A stretch of 64,000 nt of DNA from a virus, in IMG/VR virus record IMGVR_UViG_3300025154_000061, positions 1-64,000 of that record. The stretch is one strand, 5' to 3'. Below the pieces are notes generated by a model. It worked only from the letters and a program-made list of their open reading frames with translations, was not told the origin of the DNA and did no database searches. The translations under genes were made by a program, and so were the position numbers. This document shows positions 26,590 to 54,615 of this stretch, piece after piece (the first letter of the stretch is position 1; every line of letters begins with the position of its first letter).

Positions 26590-27107
26590 AGCGCCTTTGC
26601 GCCGCCCTCGCCCTTTCGCTGCTCGCGTTCCTCGTCGTTCCGCACCTCGCCGCGCAGACCGCCGGGGCGTTCGACACCCCGGGGGCTGCCTCGACGGCGA
26701 CCCCTGCGCCCTCGCCGACGGCCGAGCCCTCGTTCGACGACGTCACGACTACGACGACGGTCGTCTCGACCTCGACGGCGCCGCTCACCCCGGGCGAGAT
26801 CGAGTCAATGCTCGTTTCGATCCTCGCCGGGCTCGTGCTCGGGCTTGTGATCGCGATCGGGAAGGCGATCCCCGTCTTCTCGGCGTCGGCCTCGAAGGGG
26901 TCGTTCGCGAACAAGGCGATCGTCCCGGTCGCGCTGCTCGTCGGGATTGGCTTCGCAGCGGTCAAGTCGGCTGCGATCGGGCCGCCGATCGTCGACGAAG
27001 CCTCTTGGAACGCCCTTCTCTTGCGGGGCGTCGAGATCTCGGCAATGGCGGCGGGCTTCCGGTCGTGGGTGAAGACCTTCGGGCGCCCGACCGATAGGCT
27101 AGCCTAA
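26586..27107 (+). CDS. holin-like membrane protein
   Basis: Signal peptide plus 2-3 hydrophobic helices, downstream of endolysin. Confidence 0.55.
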   Translation: MKRLCAALALSLLAFLVVPHLAAQTAGAFDTPGAASTATPAPSPTAEPSFDDVTTTTTVVSTSTAPLTPGEIESMLVSILAGLVLGLVIAIGKAIPVFSASASKGSFANKAIVPVALLVGIGFAAVKSAAIGPPIVDEASWNALLLRGVEISAMAAGFRSWVKTFGRPTDRLA

Positions 27108-27109
27108 CG
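27092..27109. promoter_or_regulatory. palindrome copy CGATAGGCTAGCCTAACG (1 mismatch)
   Basis: At the end of the late/lysis operon. Confidence 0.6.
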
Positions 27110-27327
27110 TTACGCCTCGCGAATCGCCCTCGTATAGCGCCAATCCAGCGCGCACCCCTCCCCGAGAATCTTCAATCGCGCCAACGACTTGCGAGAATGG
27201 CCCTTTATACGCCCGAGAAGGCCCCTTCCTGCGTTCCGCCCCCGCGGGGGCGGTCGTCGTAGCCCCGAGGCCCTAGAAACGTCGCGGCGACCCCGCCGCG
27301 TTGGCCGTCGACGGGCTCTCTTCGTGC

Positions 27328-27355
27328 GCGACGGTCGACCGTCAGGCGGCGTAGA
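27328..27355 (+). promoter_or_regulatory. GCGACG-N16-CGTAGA promoter-like motif
   Basis: One of 8 copies with identical spacing; ends 8 nt before the helicase ATG. Confidence 0.7.
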
Positions 27356-27363
27356 GTCGGGCG

Positions 27364-29760
27364 ATGATACGAGCGACCCAAACCGACGCCCGCGTGACCC
27401 TCGATCGCTTCGCCGACGATCGCGACGAGGTCTATCGCCTGCTCGATCGGCGCTTCCGCTACAAGGTCGAGGGCTACGAATACGCCCCCGCCTACCAAGC
27501 TCACCGTTGGGATGGTTGGACGCACCTCGTCAAGAAGGCGAGCGGGGTCGCGCTCGTCGTTCCGCTCGGGATCTGGCCCGAGTGCGCCGAGGTGCTCGCC
27601 GAGAACGGGGTCGAGTTCGAGCACGTCGACGAGCGCCGCCCGGTCGCGCCGCTCGACGGCGACGTCGAGTGGGTCGGCCCGACGCTGCGCGACTACCAAC
27701 GCGAGGCCCGCGACGCCGCGATCGCCTCGGGCTCGGGGGTCTTGAAGCTCCCGACCCGCGCGGGGAAGACCTTGATCGCCGCCTCGATCGCGCACGCCCT
27801 ACGCCTGCGGTCGATCTTCGTCGTGCCTTCCGAAATGCTGCTACGTCAGACCGCCGCCGCGTTCGCGAAGGCCCTCTCGGGGCTGCGCGTCTCGACGATC
27901 GGCGACGGCGAGTGGGATAGTTCGGGCGACGTGGTCGTCGCGACGATTCAAACCTTGTCGGCCGTGATAGAGACGAGGCGCTTTCGCACGCTCTCGCGCT
28001 CGTTCGATATTGCTTTTATTGACGAATGCTTTCCGGCCGGGACGCTCGTTGACGGCGTCCCGATTGAGGCGATCCGTGAGGGCGATCTCGTGACAGCCTA
28101 CGATCCCGACTCGGGATCGTTCTCTTCGCGGCGTGTCGCACGCACGTTCAAGCGTCCGGCCCCCGGGGGGCTCGTGACGATCGCCACGACGGCCGGGACT
28201 GTCTCTTGCACGCCGAATCACCCGTTCTTCACCCGGCGTGGTTGGGCGGCCGCCGGGGTGCTTGACGTTGGCGAAATGGTGGCTTACGCTACCGGCCCGA
28301 CGGGGTTAGATGAAAGGGGCGGGGATGAAGCGCAAGGTGATTCAGGGGAAGTGCGTCGAGTGCGGCTCGCAGATCGAGATCGTGGGATACAATCGGTGTC
28401 ACCTTTACGAGACGACGGGCCGGGGGTACTGCTCGGAAGTCTGCAAAAAGACTTGGATGTCCCGCCGTTGGTCAGAAACGATGGCCCGCACGAATCGAGT
28501 TTACGCGTCGGCGAGGATGCGCAAGCACAACCCGATGCACGACCCCGAAGTGCGCGAGGCCGTGACTGCGAAAGCTCGGGCTCGTGGTTGGCCTGTCGGC
28601 GTGCCGCGAGGGGGGAACGGGCACGGGCCGACGAGCGCGCAATCGACGTTGGCACTCGCTCTTGGCTGGGCGATCGAAGTAGCTGTGCCGACGGGCAGGG
28701 GGGCTCGCGCGAAGGGATTCCCGCCTTGCTACAAGATCGACGTAGCGAATCCGGCCGCGAAGATAGCCGTCGAGATCGATGGATCGGGGCACACCTCGAC
28801 GCGCGTCAAGCTAGCCGACGAGCGCAAGGCCGCGTTCTTGCGTGGGCTCGGGTGGAAAGTATTACGATTCAAGAATCAGGAAGTGATATCGGATCTTCCG
28901 ACGGTGATTGCCTCGATTATGTCTACAATTTAGAAGTCGAGGGCGTGCATACATATACGGCGAATGGCTTTGTCGTGCATAATTGCCACCACCTCTCGGG
29001 GCAGGGCGACGCGTGGCGCGCCGCCGCGAATGCGATCGAGGCCCGGCACCGCTTCGGGCTGTCGGCAACGGTCGGGCTCGACCCCGTCGGCGAGAACGAT
29101 GCAACCGACGTTTGGCTTCGCGCCGTCTGCGGCCCGATCGTCTACGAGGTTGCGATCTCGACCTTGATCGAGGCGGGTTACCTCGTGCGGCCGACGATCC
29201 GCTTTTTGCGCCACGGGGCGCCCGATCTGCCTTACGACCGTTGGTCGACGCGCGCCTACGCCGACGGGATCTCGAAGTGCGAGAAGCGCAACGAGAGGAT
29301 CGTCGCCGAGGCTGCGCGCTACGCGGGGCGCGGGCTGCGCGTGCTCGTCGACGTCGCCCGCGTGGGGCACGCCCGAGCCCTCGCCAACGCCTGCGCAAAG
29401 GCCCTTCCGCCCGGCCGGGTCGCCCTACTGCTCGGCACCTCGTCGGGCGACGAGCGCGCGGCCGTCGTGGCGTCGTGGCGTCGTGGCGAAGTGCTCGTCG
29501 TGGTCGGGACGATCCTCGGCGAAGGCGTCGACATTCCCGAACTCTCGGTCGTGATCAACGCCGAGGGGGGCAAGGCGAACGTCTCGGGGCTTCAACGCCT
29601 GCGCAACCTGACGCTCTCGCCCGGTAAGACCGAGGCGATCGTCGTCGAGTTTCTCGACACGCATCACCCGCACCTCTGCGATTGGACGGCACGCCGCCTC
29701 GCGCTCTACAGGCGTGAACGCGCCTTCAAGATCGAGGCTGAACCGAAGGGGGCAACGTGA
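27364..29760 (+). CDS. superfamily 2 (DExH) helicase containing an intein
   Basis: LRDYQ, PTRAGKT, DE|intein|CHH, GLSAT, GEGVDIP motifs. Confidence 0.92.
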   Translation: MIRATQTDARVTLDRFADDRDEVYRLLDRRFRYKVEGYEYAPAYQAHRWDGWTHLVKKASGVALVVPLGIWPECAEVLAENGVEFEHVDERRPVAPLDGDVEWVGPTLRDYQREARDAAIASGSGVLKLPTRAGKTLIAASIAHALRLRSIFVVPSEMLLRQTAAAFAKALSGLRVSTIGDGEWDSSGDVVVATIQTLSAVIETRRFRTLSRSFDIAFIDECFPAGTLVDGVPIEAIREGDLVTAYDPDSGSFSSRRVARTFKRPAPGGLVTIATTAGTVSCTPNHPFFTRRGWAAAGVLDVGEMVAYATGPTGLDERGGDEAQGDSGEVRRVRLADRDRGIQSVSPLRDDGPGVLLGSLQKDLDVPPLVRNDGPHESSLRVGEDAQAQPDARPRSARGRDCESSGSWLACRRAARGERARADERAIDVGTRSWLGDRSSCADGQGGSREGIPALLQDRRSESGREDSRRDRWIGAHLDARQASRRAQGRVLAWARVESITIQESGSDIGSSDGDCLDYVYNLEVEGVHTYTANGFVVHNCHHLSGQGDAWRAAANAIEARHRFGLSATVGLDPVGENDATDVWLRAVCGPIVYEVAISTLIEAGYLVRPTIRFLRHGAPDLPYDRWSTRAYADGISKCEKRNERIVAEAARYAGRGLRVLVDVARVGHARALANACAKALPPGRVALLLGTSSGDERAAVVASWRRGEVLVVVGTILGEGVDIPELSVVINAEGGKANVSGLQRLRNLTLSPGKTEAIVVEFLDTHHPHLCDWTARRLALYRRERAFKIEAEPKGAT
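28262..28290 (+). promoter_or_regulatory. intein-internal sigma70-like promoter TTGACG-N17-TACGCT
   Basis: -35 at 28262-28267, -10 at 28285-28290, 35 nt upstream of nested ATG 28325. Confidence 0.7.
28325..28933 (+). CDS. nested DUF559/Vsr-like PD-(D/E)XK endonuclease with N-terminal Zn finger, in the +1 frame inside the intein
   Basis: CVECG..YCSEVC; HNPMHDPEVR; YKIDVA...IAVEIDGSGH...DERKAAFLRGLGWKVLRFKN; AGGGG RBS; alternative ATG at 28310. Confidence 0.88.
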   Translation: MKRKVIQGKCVECGSQIEIVGYNRCHLYETTGRGYCSEVCKKTWMSRRWSETMARTNRVYASARMRKHNPMHDPEVREAVTAKARARGWPVGVPRGGNGHGPTSAQSTLALALGWAIEVAVPTGRGARAKGFPPCYKIDVANPAAKIAVEIDGSGHTSTRVKLADERKAAFLRGLGWKVLRFKNQEVISDLPTVIASIMSTI

Positions 29761-30002
29761 AGAACCTTCTCGCTTGGTTGGGATTGAAGCCGAGGCCCGC
29801 GAACGGACACGCGACCAATCCTCGCGCGACGCTTCCGGGGGTGCCCGACGTAGATCCGGCGCTCGCGCACTTCCGCCGCGACGACTCGGGGCGCCGCCTC
29901 TGCGCCTGCGGGAACGTGGCGAAGGGCGGGCGGGCGCAGTGTGGGCCGTGCTCGCGCGGCGAGCGCTTCGTTCGCTTCGGGGGAGGCGAACCGAATTTCT
30001 AG
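29757..30002 (+). CDS. small Cys-containing hypothetical protein
   Basis: GTG overlapping the helicase stop; CACG...CGPC. Confidence 0.55.
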   Translation: MKNLLAWLGLKPRPANGHATNPRATLPGVPDVDPALAHFRRDDSGRRLCACGNVAKGGRAQCGPCSRGERFVRFGGGEPNF

Positions 30003-30016
30003 GCTCGGGGGATCCA

Positions 30017-30772
30017 ATGCCGACGCGGGAAGAGATCGTCGCGGGTATCGATCAAGCTCGGGGCCTTACGCCGCCCCTCGAAGTGCTGCGCGCGTGCCGC
30101 CGACTGACGCTGTCGGGGGTGTCGAGCGTTCCGGCGCTCGTTGACGGGCGTTGGTTCGCGGTCGTGTCGACGGCGACCTCGACGTTTGCAATGCCGATCG
30201 CCGGGTCGACCTCGCGCGTCGGCCGCCTCTACGACCGGATCTTCCCGGTCGGGACGCGCTCGGTGCTCTTCGGGGTTCACCATTGGGCGTTGCACCCCGT
30301 GCTCGTCGCGCTGGCGTGGCGCAAGCTCTACGGGGCATGGCCGACGCCTCGCGAGGCCGCCTGTATCTTCGTTCACGATCTCGGCTACCTCGGGAAGCGC
30401 ACGATCGACGGCGCCGACGGCAAGCGTCACCCGGTCGCCGGGGCGACGATCGCCGAGCGCCTCTTCGGCGCCGAGTGGGGGGCGCTCGTGCTCTTCCATT
30501 CGGGCGACTTCGCGAAGGCGAAGGGCGGCGCGATCTCGAAGCTCTACGCCCCCGACAAGCTCTCGTTCTCGCTCTACCCGCGCGCCCTCTATCTCGCCCT
30601 CGCCCGGTTGACGGGCGAGCTTCACGAGTATCGGGCGACGGCCGCGATCGCGGGGGTCGTCGACGAGCACCTTCCCGACGTCGTTTGGTTCGACGTGATC
30701 TCTGCGCGCATGGCGGCGAAGGCTTCAAGATCGGCCGCTGCGTTCAGGGCGGCAGGGGGCGACAGGGGTTGA
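30017..30772 (+). CDS. HD-domain-like phage protein
   Basis: GTRSVLFGVH..LHP, IFVHDLGY, HPVAGA, LFHS, PDKLS motifs. Confidence 0.7.
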   Translation: MPTREEIVAGIDQARGLTPPLEVLRACRRLTLSGVSSVPALVDGRWFAVVSTATSTFAMPIAGSTSRVGRLYDRIFPVGTRSVLFGVHHWALHPVLVALAWRKLYGAWPTPREAACIFVHDLGYLGKRTIDGADGKRHPVAGATIAERLFGAEWGALVLFHSGDFAKAKGGAISKLYAPDKLSFSLYPRALYLALARLTGELHEYRATAAIAGVVDEHLPDVVWFDVISARMAAKASRSAAAFRAAGGDRG

Positions 30773-49895: not shown

Positions 49896-51718
49896 AGACC
49901 TACCCCTCGCTCTTGCGCGCCGCGAAGATCGAAATGCACGGGGCCTTTCAGCCCCGCAAGATCGACGGGCTCTTCTCGGCCGACGACGTCGAGAAGATGC
50001 GCCAAGGCGGCCGCGACGCGGGCCGCCCCTCGGGGTGGGATCCCGCGCGCTACGAGCCGATCAAGGTGTGGAACCCCGACAGCAACGACGCGACCTGCCC
50101 GGCCGCGCTGCGCGATCGCTTCGCCGAGTGGTTCGTGATCAAGGGCTTTCACCGCCTCGCGCTGGCGAGGGCGTGCGGGATCGAGTCGCTCGACGTGATC
50201 GTCTGCGCGGGCTCGTTCGACGAGGCGGTCGCCGCGAGCAAGCGCTCGAACTTCGAGACGCGCGCGCTTCACCCGATCGACGAAGCCGCCGTCTATCGCG
50301 ATCGCCTTGAAGCGGGCGACACGCCCGAGCAGATCTCGCGCGACCTCGACCGCCGCGCGCCCGCCTACTACCGCAAGCGGGCCGCCGTCGCCTACCTGTC
50401 GCCCTCGTTGATCGCCGACGTGCGCTCGGGGCTTCTGCGCCTCGACTACGCCGAGCACGTCGGCCGCGCCGCGCAAGTCGGGGCGAGCCCGGCCGCGCAG
50501 GTCGCGATCGCCTCGGTCGCTGCCCGAACTTCCATGCGCGCCGAGCTTTTCGGGCGTTACGTCGACAAGGTGATCGCCGCAATTGCCGCCGCGAAACCGG
50601 GCGAAGACGTGGTCGACGTCGCCGCCCGCGAGGGGAAGACGCTTGATCTCTTCCCGCCGACGTTCGACGCGGGGGTCGCTGCCGTCGAGTCGATCACGAT
50701 CGGCGAGGCTCGACGCGAGAGCGTGCGCGACGGGTGGGCGTCGATCGGGCACGCCGCCCGAGCGCAGTTGAAGCGCCTCGAAACCGAGGGGGTTCCGCCC
50801 CCGCCCGCCCTTGGAAGGTTGATCGCCATGATCGATAAGCAGCGCGCAGGGGAAGACAGGGCGGTCGCCGCGAGCGTCGGGGCAACCGACACGCGCGAAG
50901 CGCTGCCGTTGATCAAGTGGGTCGGGTCGAAGCGCACCGAGGCCCCGACGCTCGCCGCGATCATTCGCGCACGCCTGCGGCCCGGCGCCGAATACTTCGA
51001 GCCCTTCTTCGGATCGGGCTCGGTCTTCTTCGCCGTCGCCCCCGAAACCGCCGTGATCGGCGACGTGCTCGAACCCGTGGTAAACCTTTACAAGTCGACC
51101 CGAGACGACCCCCGCGCGGTCTTCGCCGCCATGCGGGCGATCGTCGAGAAGGGGCTCGACAAGGCGTCGTTCCTCGCCGCCCGTGACGCCGACCCGCCCG
51201 CCGATCGCTTCGAGCGCGCGGGGTGGTTTCTCTACCTGAACCGCACGGGGTTCAACGGGCTGTGGCGCACGAACAAGTCGGGCAAGCTGAACGCCCCCTT
51301 CGGCACGCCGAAGACCGTCGCCGCCTTCCCGACGCTCGATCGCTTCGAGCGCTGCGCCGAGATTCTCTCGGGCGCCGTGCTCTACTGCGGCGACTACTCG
51401 AAGGGCGTCGCCCGCGCCAAGGCTGGCGACGTGGTCTTCGCCGACCCGCCCTACCCCGGCACGTTCAGCGACTACGCCAAGCGCACGGGGCCGATCGACT
51501 ACGCCAAGCTCGCCGCCGACCTGCGCGCCGCGCACGATCGGGGGGCGCACGTCGTGACGACCCTCGCCGCGAGCGAAGACCTCGACGCGCTCTTCTCGCC
51601 TTGGTGCTACCGCGTCGACCTTTCGCGCACCTCGAACGTCTCTTGCAAGGCGTCGACGAGGGGCGAGTTCAAGCAGGTCGTTTGGTGCTCGCACGAGCGA
51701 GAGGGGGCCGCCGAATGA
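49892..51718 (+). CDS. ParB-like domain fused to Dam-family DNA adenine methyltransferase
   Basis: N-terminal FQPR, PIKVW, IKGFHRL; C-terminal IKWVGSK, EPFFGSGSV, LNRTGFNGL, DPPY. Confidence 0.85.
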   Translation: MKTYPSLLRAAKIEMHGAFQPRKIDGLFSADDVEKMRQGGRDAGRPSGWDPARYEPIKVWNPDSNDATCPAALRDRFAEWFVIKGFHRLALARACGIESLDVIVCAGSFDEAVAASKRSNFETRALHPIDEAAVYRDRLEAGDTPEQISRDLDRRAPAYYRKRAAVAYLSPSLIADVRSGLLRLDYAEHVGRAAQVGASPAAQVAIASVAARTSMRAELFGRYVDKVIAAIAAAKPGEDVVDVAAREGKTLDLFPPTFDAGVAAVESITIGEARRESVRDGWASIGHAARAQLKRLETEGVPPPPALGRLIAMIDKQRAGEDRAVAASVGATDTREALPLIKWVGSKRTEAPTLAAIIRARLRPGAEYFEPFFGSGSVFFAVAPETAVIGDVLEPVVNLYKSTRDDPRAVFAAMRAIVEKGLDKASFLAARDADPPADRFERAGWFLYLNRTGFNGLWRTNKSGKLNAPFGTPKTVAAFPTLDRFERCAEILSGAVLYCGDYSKGVARAKAGDVVFADPPYPGTFSDYAKRTGPIDYAKLAADLRAAHDRGAHVVTTLAASEDLDALFSPWCYRVDLSRTSNVSCKASTRGEFKQVVWCSHEREGAAE

Positions 51719-54615
51719 AGATCGAACGCGTGCGCCTCGACGGGATCACCCGCTACCGCAGGCCGATCGAACTCGCGCTTCCCGAGGGGGTCGTCGCGAT
51801 CGTCGGGCCGAACGGGTGCCTACAGGGCGACGTAGAGATTTACGATCCAACGGACGGATCGTCCGTCGCCGTTCGCGATCGTTACAATCGGGGCGTGCCG
51901 TTTCACGTATGGGCGTTAGGGCCGCATGGGGTCGTAACGACGGCCGCAATGCCCCCTTGCAAGTATCCGCCCGCTCAAATGCTGCGATTGCGGTTCGCGG
52001 ACGGGAAGTCGATTACGGTGACTCCGGCGCACAAGTTTTGGAGCGGCGCCGAGTGGTTGACAGCTTCCGCCATTTTTCAAGCCCTGCGAGAGAACGGGCG
52101 CGTCCGGCTGCCGTCCAGTTCGGCCGCTTACCTGTCAACTCATGCCGAAGATGATCTGCGTTGGTGCGAAATAATTCCAGATTCTCCGGGCGGTTGTCGG
52201 CGTGTTCCCCGTTGCGATGATGCACGACTTCTTCCGGCAGAAGTCGGCGCCCGAGAATCCGTTCCATTACGAGGCGATGCTCCCGAACTAGCCCTTTGCG
52301 ATCTGCGTCGGGGTGATACGGAAGCCGTAGAAGAATGTAGCCGTCGGCGTCAATCACCCGACCGCCGCGCCACGACCCATTGCGAGCGCCCGGCGCTCCC
52401 CGGTCACGAATCGCTCCTCCGACGTTGCGGATTGCCTTCGCGATCCGGCTTTGATTCGAGTGCATTGACCGGGCGATCTCCGCGAGACTCGCCCCGCTCT
52501 CGTAGCGTGCAAGAGCTTCGCGCCTCCGCTCATCCGTCCAATTCTGACGCATCGACGCCCCCCGGGGTTATGGTTCCTTTCGAAACATACCCCGCGATTG
52601 ACCCGTCGACAATCGAAATTGTCGCGGTTGGCGAGCTACCGTGCGAGCCTTACTACGACTTCCACGTCCCGGTTCACCTAAACTATTGGGCCGCCGGGGT
52701 CTGGAATCACAACTCCGGCAAGACGACGCTTCTCGAATGCCTCGGCCCGGCCGTCTTCTTCCGCGAGTTGCCGACCCGCGAGCCCTCGGGAATCCAGAAT
52801 TGGATCGGGCCGAAGGGCGGCCGGATCGAACTCGACTTCGTGCGGGGCTCGCGCCGCTACGAAGCGATCGTCGAGATCGACGGGTCGGGCAGGCAAGCCG
52901 CGTTCCTGACGTGCGACGGGGTCAAGCTCGCGTCGGGCAAGGTGCGCGACTACGACGTCGAGATCGCGAAGGTGGTCGGCAACCGCGACGCCTTCTACGC
53001 CTCGGTCTTCGGGATGCAGGGCGGGGGCGGGCGCTTCGAGTCGCTCGAAGTCACCGACCGCAAGGCGATCTTTCGCTACTACCTCGGGCTCGACCGGGTC
53101 GACAAGGCGCACCGCGCCGCCCGCGCCCGCCTCGAAGCGCTCGACGTCTCGAAGATCGCCACGCTGCGCGCCGATCTCGAAGCCTGCGAGACGGCGATCG
53201 CCGAGGCCGAGGCCGACGTCAAGGCTGCGGTCTTCGCGGCCGACGCCGAGCGCGAGGTAAGTCGCAAGGCGCGCGCCAAGCTCGACGACCTGCTCGCGCT
53301 CTCGTCGACGGCCGAACTCGTCGACGCCTACGACACCGCTCTCGACGCGGCGGGCGAGGCGCAAGACGCGCTCACCGCCCTACCTGCCCGCCCGGCCGCC
53401 GCGCCTGCGCCGACGGGCGACAAGGGCGCCGCTACGATCGCCTTAGAGGCCGCGAGGAAGAAGAACGAGGGCTACCTCGTCAAGAGCGCCGAGATCGCCC
53501 GCGTCGGCTCTTCGCTGGCGACGGCGAACGCCGACCTCGTGCGGGCGAACAAGGCGACCGAGCGTCTCGCGCGCGTGCCGTGCAAGGGCGAGGGCGCCTT
53601 CGCCGGGTGCGAGTTGCTGCGCGACGCGATCGCCGCGCGCGAATCGATCGCTGCGCTGCGCGACGTGTGCGCCAAGGCCGAGCAGGCGCACGAGACGTTG
53701 AAGGTCGAGGTCGCCGCGCTCGTCGTGCCCCGCGAGAAGCTCGACGCACTGCGCGCCAAGGTCGCCGAGGCCGAGCGGGAACTTGAAGCGCACCGCCTCG
53801 GGGCCGAGCGCTGCCGCGCCTACGACGAGAAGCGCGATCGACTGAACCGTGCGCTCGCTGACGCGAAGAGGCAGGCCGCCGCGCTGCGTGCCCGGCTGCC
53901 GAAGGTGATCGACGACGTGCCGTCGCTGGCGCAGATCGACGCCGCTCGCGAGGCGAGCGCCGCCGCGAGTGCCGCCTACGAGAAGGCGATCCGCGAGCAC
54001 GAGGCGGGCGTCGCTGCGTTCGGCGGCGCCCTCGATCGCAAGGCCGGGATCGAGAAGGCCCTCGCCGCCGAGGAAGCTCGCGCCGCCGACGCGCCCGCGC
54101 TCGAACTGCTCGCCCGCGCTCTCGGGGCGAACGGGATCCAAGCCTACGAGATCGACGCCGCAGGCCCCCGCGTCTCGGCCCTCGCGAACTCGCTCTTGCA
54201 TGCCTGCTACGGGCCGCGCTTCGACGTCGAGGTGCGCACGACGAAGGCGTTGAAGAGTGGCAAGGGCGAGAAGGAAGACTTCGACGTCGTCGTCTACGAC
54301 AACGACAGCGGGATCGAGAACACGATCGCCGGGCTGTCGGGGGGCGAGAAGGTGATCGTCGACGAGGCGCTTCGGCTGTCGCTCGTGATCTTCGCCGACG
54401 AGCGCCTCTCGGTTCCGTTCCGGGTGCTCTACCGCGACGAGACGATCGGCGGGCTCACCCGGGACAACCGCGCCGCCTATGCGCGAATGCTTCACCGCGC
54501 CCGCGATCTCGGCGACTTCGGGCAGATCTTCCAAGTGACCCACGACGAAGAGTCGAGCGAGAGCGCCGATGTCGTGATCGCGATCGACGAGTCGGGCAAT
54601 GTCTCGGTCGCATGA
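51715..54615 (+). CDS. sbcC: SbcC/Rad50 ATPase containing an intein
   Basis: GPNG|intein|SGKTT, coiled coils, LSGGEK, YRDE, VTH. Confidence 0.92.
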   Translation: MKIERVRLDGITRYRRPIELALPEGVVAIVGPNGCLQGDVEIYDPTDGSSVAVRDRYNRGVPFHVWALGPHGVVTTAAMPPCKYPPAQMLRLRFADGKSITVTPAHKFWSGAEWLTASAIFQALRENGRVRLPSSSAAYLSTHAEDDLRWCEIIPDSPGGCRRVPRCDDARLLPAEVGARESVPLRGDAPELALCDLRRGDTEAVEECSRRRQSPDRRATTHCERPALPGHESLLRRCGLPSRSGFDSSALTGRSPRDSPRSRSVQELRASAHPSNSDASTPPGVMVPFETYPAIDPSTIEIVAVGELPCEPYYDFHVPVHLNYWAAGVWNHNSGKTTLLECLGPAVFFRELPTREPSGIQNWIGPKGGRIELDFVRGSRRYEAIVEIDGSGRQAAFLTCDGVKLASGKVRDYDVEIAKVVGNRDAFYASVFGMQGGGGRFESLEVTDRKAIFRYYLGLDRVDKAHRAARARLEALDVSKIATLRADLEACETAIAEAEADVKAAVFAADAEREVSRKARAKLDDLLALSSTAELVDAYDTALDAAGEAQDALTALPARPAAAPAPTGDKGAATIALEAARKKNEGYLVKSAEIARVGSSLATANADLVRANKATERLARVPCKGEGAFAGCELLRDAIAARESIAALRDVCAKAEQAHETLKVEVAALVVPREKLDALRAKVAEAERELEAHRLGAERCRAYDEKRDRLNRALADAKRQAAALRARLPKVIDDVPSLAQIDAAREASAAASAAYEKAIREHEAGVAAFGGALDRKAGIEKALAAEEARAADAPALELLARALGANGIQAYEIDAAGPRVSALANSLLHACYGPRFDVEVRTTKALKSGKGEKEDFDVVVYDNDSGIENTIAGLSGGEKVIVDEALRLSLVIFADERLSVPFRVLYRDETIGGLTRDNRAAYARMLHRARDLGDFGQIFQVTHDEESSESADVVIAIDESGNVSVA
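52013..52552 (-). CDS. nested antisense HTH + HNH endonuclease inside the SbcC intein
   Basis: YESGASLAEIAR (HTH), NGSWRGGR..DGY, EHRLVME..LGR.L...EVVHHRNG..DNRPENLEL; GGGGGG RBS 5 nt before ATG. Confidence 0.9.
   Translation of the reverse strand: MRQNWTDERRREALARYESGASLAEIARSMHSNQSRIAKAIRNVGGAIRDRGAPGARNGSWRGGRVIDADGYILLRLPYHPDADRKGLVREHRLVMERILGRRLLPEEVVHHRNGEHADNRPENLELFRTNADHLRHELTGKRPNWTAAGRARSLAGLEKWRKLSTTRRRSKTCAPESP
52584..52612 (-). promoter_or_regulatory. intein-internal antisense promoter TTGTCG-N17-TATGTT
   Basis: -35 at 52612-52607, -10 at 52589-52584, about 30 nt upstream of HNH ATG 52552. Confidence 0.65.

Follow-up and report, generated by a model that had tools for sequence, protein, structure and literature searches.

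A helicase intein overprinted by a putative homing-endonuclease gene in the +1 frame, a layout that recurs in phages and bacterial genomes

The DNA analysed here, which we call the window, is a stretch of 64,000 nt (positions 1 to 64,000) of the IMG/VR virus record IMGVR_UViG_3300025154_000061, a metagenomic viral contig of 92,259 bases with an estimated completeness of about 90%. It carries a superfamily 2 (SF2) helicase gene that is very probably occupied by a composite mobile element. The element would consist of a class-1 mini-intein in helicase motif II and a homing-endonuclease gene overprinted on it in the +1 frame, and it would work through protein splicing, an internal start for the endonuclease, and homing. 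Nesting at +1 is no one-off: a large family of phage elements has it as its normal arrangement. The features of the locus are as follows (ORF, open reading frame; pLDDT, predicted local distance difference test score).

27364-29760, + strand: SF2 helicase ORF, 798 aa (Pfam ResIII 1e-17, DEAD and Helicase_C; PHROG 16 'DNA helicase' 1e-50)
27364..28026, + strand: N-extein of the SF2 (UvsW/ResIII-type) helicase, its last residues being D-E of motif II (ResIII 1e-17, DEAD, weak UvsW_N match; PHROG 16 1e-50)
28027-28983, + strand: class-1 intein, 319 aa, helicase residues 222-540, from CFPAGT… to …VVHN, then C
28027..28302, + strand: N-terminal Hint half, intein residues 1-92, with Cys1 and block B T62-x-x-H65 (28210-28221); predicted beta strands, pLDDT 91-98
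28303..28827, + strand: helicase-frame linker, intein residues 93-267, the alternative reading of the endonuclease gene; stop-free, pLDDT 40-50, no predicted secondary structure
28310, + strand: alternative ATG of the nested ORF, directly 3' of an in-frame TAG (28307-28309)
28313..28324, + strand: putative Shine-Dalgarno-like purine/G-rich stretch (AAAGGGG, then GGGG), read from the sequence just upstream of the ATG at 28325
28325..28933, + strand: nested homing-endonuclease ORF, 202 aa plus TAG stop, +1 frame ((28325-27364) mod 3 = 1)
28352..28444, + strand: Cys4 zinc ribbon of the endonuclease (C10, C13, C36, C40), from conservation and a predicted two-strand hairpin (pLDDT >90)
28625..28930, + strand: DUF559/Vsr-like PD-(D/E)xK nuclease domain, endonuclease residues 101-202, from structural alignment, profile and invariant columns
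28828..28983, + strand: C-terminal Hint half, residues 268-319, with blocks F and G and the H318-N319 end; pLDDT about 97 except for the loop 284-297
28886..28933, + strand: dual-constrained segment by frame-wise conservation, the endonuclease tail …IMSTI and stop over intein block F …DYVYNLEV
28984..29760, + strand: C-extein, from the +1 Cys of C-H-H (motif II) through Helicase_C

A helicase intein at 28027-28983 had been proposed in an earlier annotation made from the letters alone (hereafter the sequence-only reading), and all of its coordinates hold. The insert of the helicase ORF has a Pfam Intein_splicing match (2e-10, above the cut-off). When the intein is excised in silico, FIDE meets CHHLSG and the helicase's DExH motif II (DE|CHH) is restored; at the DNA level the intein-less junction reads …GACGAA|TGCCACCAC…. 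Intein-less homologues have DECHH, DEVHH or DEAHH at the motif II position. The intein had also been described as unbroken, and the single 798-aa helicase ORF does cross the insert with no stop. When the helicase was searched at the DNA level against phages, the sole match was a 142-nt one to CP-T1-like phages. Two phage protein profiles cover the window helicase in part: PHROG 16259 (330 positions) matches over the N-extein and the N-terminal Hint half only, and PHROG 9690 (306 positions) over the C-terminal Hint end and the C-extein only. This coverage hints that split versions of the window-type helicase may exist in phages.

The AlphaFold model of the intein, built with 32 homologous inteins, has two beta-rich regions of high confidence (residues 1-92 and 268-319, pLDDT >90 bar one loop), separated by a 175-residue stretch that overlaps the nuclease gene and is predicted to be disordered. 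The ordered parts align with the NpuDnaB mini-intein (4o1r) at Z 20.0 and a root-mean-square deviation (rmsd) of 1.4 over 130 of 142 residues. They also align with the split inteins NrdJ-1 (Z 18.7) and gp41-1 (Z 17.9), and in all 30 intein/Hint chains reach a Z of at least 8. Residues C1, T62, H65, V299, Y300, V317 and N319 are invariant across the 32 inteins, H318 is nearly so, and the window copy has the catalytic set C1, T62-P-N-H65, H318-N319 and C+1. In the model, the ordered halves form a complete Hint fold and the overlapped stretch is a disordered loop, the arrangement that a structure prediction had been proposed to look for. The helicase-frame reading of the overlap had been said to look like no protein family, and our analysis found no family match for it either. 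A mini-intein that can, as modelled, tolerate a disordered insert of 175 residues could be put to use as a tool.

The nested ORF had been placed on the same strand as the helicase and in its +1 frame, and the computed offset agrees. Its TAG stop (28931-28933) does fall inside the codons of block F, where it spans TTA-GAA of VYNLEV. The product had been read as a Cys4 finger, a basic NUMOD-like segment and a DUF559/Vsr-like domain. The finger and the nuclease domain were borne out: in the profile search, Pfam DUF559 (PF04480) matches residues 136-201 with an E-value of 4.2e-12 (46.4 bits against a cut-off of 20.6; 47.5 bits in a genome-wide search), and the predicted fold is close to that of a DUF559 protein. 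The NUMOD-like label of the basic segment gained no support, as Pfam and PHROG scans found no NUMOD family on the endonuclease and no library gave a match; the N-terminus is a Cys4 zinc ribbon followed by long helices.

Conservation and the fold model of the endonuclease were both derived from an alignment of 22 homologues. In this alignment C13, C36 and C40 do not vary, and C10 is kept by 90% or more of the sequences; the nuclease domain has seven invariant residues (Y136, K137, D139, E150, H156, D165 and K168), and at least 90% of sequences share D152. The window endonuclease keeps every invariant position of the family, and all four Cys. Judged from these columns, D139, E150, D152, H156, D165 and K168 are candidates for catalytic roles. 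The model has a mean pLDDT of 89 and consists of a two-strand zinc ribbon, long helices and a C-terminal alpha/beta domain. The ribbon shows a weak resemblance to MYM/FCS zinc fingers and to the zinc ribbon of L33. With VIA-align, the nuclease domain aligns with the DUF559 protein 3hrl (Z 11.7, rmsd 1.2, 81 residues aligned), with the catalytic domain from the homing endonuclease I-Bth0305I (3r3p; Z 9.9), and with Escherichia coli Vsr (1cw0 and 1vsr; Z 9.3 and 8.5). The top Foldseek match is I-Bth0305I, at a weak E-value of 6.6e-3. The family profile against the PDB matches 3hrl (6e-9) and 3r3p (6.7e-3), and a search with the single protein sequence matched 3hrl alone. Because of these VIA-align, Foldseek and profile matches to 3hrl, 3r3p and Vsr, we assign the predicted nuclease to the DUF559-type members of the Vsr superfamily. 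The nuclease may plausibly belong to the EDxHD homing family, but in the profile alignment I-Bth0305I has N in the column of the consensus Asp of the nested-endonuclease family (D152 in P0001). Zinc-ribbon/DUF559 enzymes of this kind are a pool of candidate site-specific nucleases.

Full-length homologues of the nested protein, at about 40% identity, are found under 'helicase' annotations in 40 phage records, and full-length relatives of the endonuclease occur at 40-50% identity. A +1 ORF lies in an uninterrupted helicase ORF in the Vibrio phages CP-T1 (46% GC), 104E43.1 (42%) and 1.194.O (50%), and likewise in the Corynebacterium phage phi673; all four share the DEC…HN|CHH intein borders with the window. 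Neither the intein nor the nested endonuclease is annotated in the records of CP-T1 gp10 (L001), phi673 gp43 (L085) and the loci L002 and L003, where the region is labelled 'putative helicase', 'hypothetical protein' or 'coil containing protein'. Many more records of cultured Vibrio phages likewise name no more than a helicase or hypothetical protein. Gene callers will systematically miss this family of helicase inteins with nested endonucleases.

A pattern scan of IMG/VR returned 328 relatives, and 80 of these loci were fetched. The endonuclease ORF sits at +1 within an open frame in 77 of the 80, at 30-67% GC, and the host open frames are 1.5-7.5 kb long (2.0-7.5 kb where uncut by a contig end). 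Counted over viral or phage loci, the +1 nesting is found in 80 of 83. Among loci fetched from bacterial genomes and metagenome-assembled genomes it is found in 63 of 80, or in 49 of the 54 in which the similarity covers the full-length endonuclease. These carriers belong to Chloroflexota, Verrucomicrobiota, Cyanobacteriota, Planctomycetota, Bacillota and other groups, and include Ktedonobacter racemifer. The +1-nested loci range from 25 to 68% GC. An offset of +2 was not seen in any of the fetched viral and bacterial-genome loci, and an endonuclease in frame with the upstream half was seen among them in one locus only (L054). Of 67 distinct loci, 46 have the element inserted at DE|CHH, and most others have it at a close variant of that site. 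Endonucleases outside the intein frame were called rare, and in these helicases the +1 layout is the rule across 25-68% GC and many phyla.

In the exceptional locus (L054:2838-5098) one frame, a 397-aa ORF, runs through N-extein, N-terminal Hint half and endonuclease alike, and the C-terminal Hint half and C-extein are open only from 3428, in a different frame. Either L054 is fractured or split by nature, or it reflects a frameshift error.

The number of stops to be expected in the helicase frame was estimated by resampling synonymous codons of each endonuclease ORF with local codon usage. For the window copy 4.3 stops are expected and none is seen (P(no stop) = 0.010), and the remaining, third frame holds 9. 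Because the resampling expects 4.3 stops, the open helicase frame in the window is more than chance. The expectation for the other loci is 2.7-21 stops each; summed over 69 distinct loci, about 753 helicase-frame stops are expected and 0 observed, with 1021 in the third frame. A stop in the helicase frame requires an endonuclease codon that ends in T followed by a codon that starts with AA, AG or GA. A third-position T stands before such codons in 0 of 3811 cases, and elsewhere T/(T+C) is 0.58. NNT and NNC are always synonymous, which allows any helicase-frame stop to be eliminated by a silent change, and the endonuclease protein pays nothing for the overlap.

Compared between loci, the endonuclease frame has an amino-acid identity of 0.43, and the helicase frame and the non-coding third frame both have 0.24. 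In pairs with at least 90% nucleotide identity, differences fall at endonuclease codon positions 1, 2 and 3 in the numbers 13, 16 and 72. From the frame identities and the excess of position-3 differences it follows that the endonuclease is the protein under purifying selection. Selection of this kind acts on the nuclease frame only, and the helicase-frame linker need only stay open. The sole stretch in which conservation of the helicase frame catches up is the last ~45 nt, where the tail and stop of the endonuclease lie over block F: at 28886-28933 it is 0.44-0.59, versus 0.42-0.46 for the endonuclease and 0.40-0.48 for the third frame. The sequence-only reading had stated that two functional sequences overlap. 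This is clear in those ~45 nt; elsewhere the helicase frame is open and unconserved. We also considered dual constraint on the strand before block F (W-x-R-V-D/E-S) and do not claim it, as helicase-frame conservation there is not above that of the third frame; the conservation of this motif may simply echo GWKVLRF, a conserved stretch of the endonuclease. As an example of overlapping genes the family is a clean one: one frame is informative, the other need only be open, and a simple codon rule explains the zero cost.

We propose that ribosomes would translate the 957-nt insert in the helicase frame without a break, and that the Hint halves (1-92 and 268-319) would fold together round the loop of ~175 residues. 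Canonical splicing, with Cys1, T-x-x-H, His-Asn and the +1 Cys, would then restore DE-CHH and an active helicase, as sequence and predicted structure suggest. The endonuclease would be made separately from the same mRNA, probably from the internal ATG at 28325. Its putative target is the intein-less helicase allele, which it would cut at the DECHH codons or close by, and repair by recombination would copy the intein together with the endonuclease, a homing step to which the distribution of the family points.

In nearly all copies a start codon (ATG, GTG or TTG) lies a few codons ahead of the endonuclease's first CxxC. In Vibrio-phage-like copies (L001:2346-2368, L003:2313-2335 and L039:439-461) the best Shine-Dalgarno match of the endonuclease is GAGGT. 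Because this GAGGT is written within the codons for the conserved D-E-V-L at the end of the N-terminal Hint half, the start signal overlaps intein coding sequence in these copies. A promoter candidate, TTGACG-N17-TACGCT (28262-28290), was rejected after it failed a scan with the sigma-70 consensus. Rfam at a permissive threshold gave no match and no sign of a group I or group II intron.

Several points weigh against the composite-element reading. We infer splicing, translation of the +1 ORF and DNA cleavage alike. At least 5 Shine-Dalgarno-matching bases are present at 39% of endonuclease starts versus about 25% of in-gene controls, a weak enrichment. The sigma-70 consensus scan of 27000-30200 found 0 promoter-like and 0 terminator-like sites. 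For the high-GC window copy alone, P = 0.010 makes the open frame only moderately unlikely. Finally, the sporadic presence of the element among helicase homologues could also reflect repeated loss.

The distribution of relatives bears on mobility. We compared the 41 closest relatives of the window C-extein (31-57% identity; 40-57% for the closest 20), and 36 of them are helicases of 446-515 aa without an insert. The very closest ones are insert-free helicases of 470-500 aa. The site is empty DECHH in 7 of these 36, and DEVHH or DEAHH in the others. Between carriers, similarity is often far higher in endonuclease and intein than in the exteins, as in L056 and L083, where identity is 65% for the endonuclease, 54% for the N-terminal Hint half and 26% for the C-extein. 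Free-standing relatives of the endonuclease occur in L047, in L048 and in five genome loci. In L048 (L048:3355-5623) the free-standing endonuclease lies directly upstream of an intein-less DEAH helicase and its end overlaps the helicase start, and in L047 (L047:3338-3979) it lies among replication genes with no intein nearby. Because sites are empty, endonuclease and intein are more alike than the exteins, and free-standing relatives exist, the sequence comparisons fit a history in which a free-standing endonuclease once invaded a mini-intein and both then spread as one unit.

Seven loci (L066, L076, L077, L118, L125, L127 and L160) carry the intein-plus-endonuclease unit at a site that differs slightly, following GH, AH or HA instead of DE, and their C-exteins include CYK, CGK, CFK, CGV and CAD. 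The host ORF is 5-7.5 kb long in L066, L077, L118, L127 and L160, and because of this we suggest that the unit jumped into other helicase-containing proteins.

Two of the explanations that compete with a composite element concern the +1 register itself. The sequence-only reading had named one of them: homologous inteins might carry the nuclease in frame, and the window copy might be a canonical intein whose middle was displaced by compensating indel errors of sequencing or assembly. The window is a metagenomic contig, and L054 has the N-extein, N-terminal Hint half and endonuclease in one frame. The relatives, however, have the +1 offset in more than 140 independent loci, finished cultured-phage genomes included, and because of this recurrence we consider error refuted and leave it practically no probability. 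The in-frame TAG just before the start (28307-28309) and the position of the endonuclease's own stop inside block F also argue against it. A search for longer proteins (355-2000 aa) with the endonuclease in frame found none at E ≤1e-10, which is weak evidence in the same direction. In the other explanation, programmed +1 ribosomal frameshifting from the helicase frame yields a fusion of N-extein, N-terminal Hint half and endonuclease. Both ORFs are on one strand and one mRNA, Shine-Dalgarno support for internal starts is weak, and L054 shows that the fusion is possible as DNA. Against this stand the start codons present in almost every copy, the TAG that closes the +1 frame directly upstream of the window start and leaves hardly any room for a shift, and the lack of a stable RNA element at the starts. 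Folding of 81-nt windows at 12 endonuclease starts gave no shared stable hairpin (11 of 12 z-scores between -0.7 and +1.3, and L004 alone at -2.47). Frameshifting of this kind is very unlikely.

The remaining two accept the nested gene and question its present role. The window copy may be a relic in which the intein splices and the nested endonuclease is unexpressed or inactive, its open frame being in part a matter of high GC. A P(no stop) of 0.010 is not extreme, the expression signals at the endonuclease start are weak (Shine-Dalgarno) or not found (sigma-70 scan), and homing-cycle theory predicts decay once an element is fixed. Against this stand a full-length ORF with all invariant positions kept, four Cys included, a confident model (pLDDT 89), and purifying selection on the family as a whole; we hold a relic to be quite improbable. 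Alternatively, the nuclease might serve the phage as a weapon that cuts helicase genes of competitors in a co-infection (marker exclusion), homing then being a side effect. Free-standing relatives beside an intein-less helicase or replication genes (L048 and L047) would suit this role, and phage nuclease genes at boundaries of genetic exchange are documented (PMC10448857). The strict co-inheritance of the nuclease with the intein at one site fits a selfish unit instead, as does a similarity of endonuclease and intein above that of the exteins, and a primary role as a weapon seems unlikely to us. A composite homing element is the reading we retain.

The same phage genome carries another candidate. 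An ORF of 1130 aa at 51223-54615 (+) of the window encodes an SMC/SbcC-like ATPase (Pfam SMC_N 2e-6) with an intein-like insert in Walker A (…GPNG|CLQGD … VWNHN|SGKTT…) and a weak Intein_splicing match at 51973-52713. Within the insert, at 52013-52552 (-), lies an ORF of 179 aa that matches HNH_3 (4e-8, above the cut-off). By sequence, the insert resembles a second non-canonical intein and the 179-aa ORF looks like an antisense homing endonuclease.

A closely similar known enzyme is I-Bth0305I, the prototype EDxHD homing endonuclease (Taylor et al., 2011, PMC3239194; PDB 3R3P). It too has a C-terminal Vsr-like domain behind an N-terminal DNA-binding region, and is phage-borne within a self-splicing element. 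I-Bth0305I differs in that its element is a group I intron of recA and its N-terminus is NUMOD/HTH (helix-turn-helix), and in sequence the nested protein is closer to the DUF559 protein 3hrl (6e-9) than to I-Bth0305I (7e-3).

Inteins with an endonuclease outside the intein frame have been described in actinobacteriophages (Gosselin, Arsenault and Gogarten, bioRxiv 10.1101/2025.01.02.630785), where the layout was called rare and a free-standing endonuclease gene was proposed to have invaded a mini-intein. The cases reported there are an antisense Vsr-like endonuclease (matching 3R3P), an antisense LAGLIDADG endonuclease and a frame-3 endonuclease VII-like one. They share with the window element a contiguous, presumably splicing intein, a separate endonuclease ORF in the usual insertion region, and an open host frame. 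The Vsr-like endonucleases of actinophages, in contrast, are antisense and lie in DNA polymerase, minor capsid, terminase or thymidylate synthase genes, and the only same-strand shifted case is the endonuclease VII-like one in frame 3. The endonuclease described here is of the zinc-ribbon/DUF559 type and shares a strand with its SF2 helicase host at a +1 offset, an arrangement that holds as a rule in over 140 loci from many phyla. The dnaX intein of cyanobacteria, whose LAGLIDADG endonuclease is out of frame (Phillips, DeSimone and Gogarten, bioRxiv 10.64898/2026.09.14.751524), is alike in its same-strand overlapping ORFs, in purifying selection on the endonuclease frame with a relaxed intein frame, and in its sporadic presence relative to the extein tree; it differs in having a LAGLIDADG endonuclease in a +2 ORF, with dnaX as host gene in a cellular lineage. 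Both preprints cite Gorbalenya 1998. Also known is a related HNH insert that is out of frame and has no intein. Out-of-frame intein endonucleases have been published in these 2025-26 preprints, and in the literature searched we found no description of the same-strand Vsr-like helicase version, a +1 zinc-ribbon/DUF559 endonuclease in a helicase motif II intein.

Fractured genes, in which split inteins are separated by free-standing Vsr-like or GIY-YIG endonuclease genes, were described by Dassa et al. (2009, PMC2677866), and the statement in the sequence-only reading that Vsr-like endonucleases are reported between split inteins is correct. Fractured genes are also phage DNA-metabolism genes, helicases included, with a Vsr-superfamily endonuclease at the intein's endonuclease insertion point, and the 3' end of the endonuclease overlaps the C-terminal intein part (by 6-69 bp there, and at block F here). 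The predicted fold of the window intein resembles gp41-1 (Z 17.9) and NrdJ-1 (Z 18.7). The fractured host genes, however, are two trans-splicing ORFs, whereas the frame here is unbroken with 600 nt dual-coded, and their endonucleases have NUMOD-type N-termini where the window endonuclease has a Cys4 zinc ribbon. It is possible, though we put it forward only tentatively, that the +1-nested family is the long-lived contiguous ancestor ('step II') of phage fractured genes and of fast split inteins of the gp41-1 and NrdJ-1 type, that the register is not accidental, and that L054 is a break in progress. Since host-frame stops can always be removed silently at +1, the pair could persist indefinitely in such a state; the silent-removal argument also covers a same-strand +2 offset, except for Met-plus-A and Trp-plus-A. 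The family is a large natural data set on how an intein and a free-standing endonuclease fuse into a mobile unit, and on the origin of split inteins. In its working, the window element is like the precursor state of the fractured-gene model and not like a split intein.

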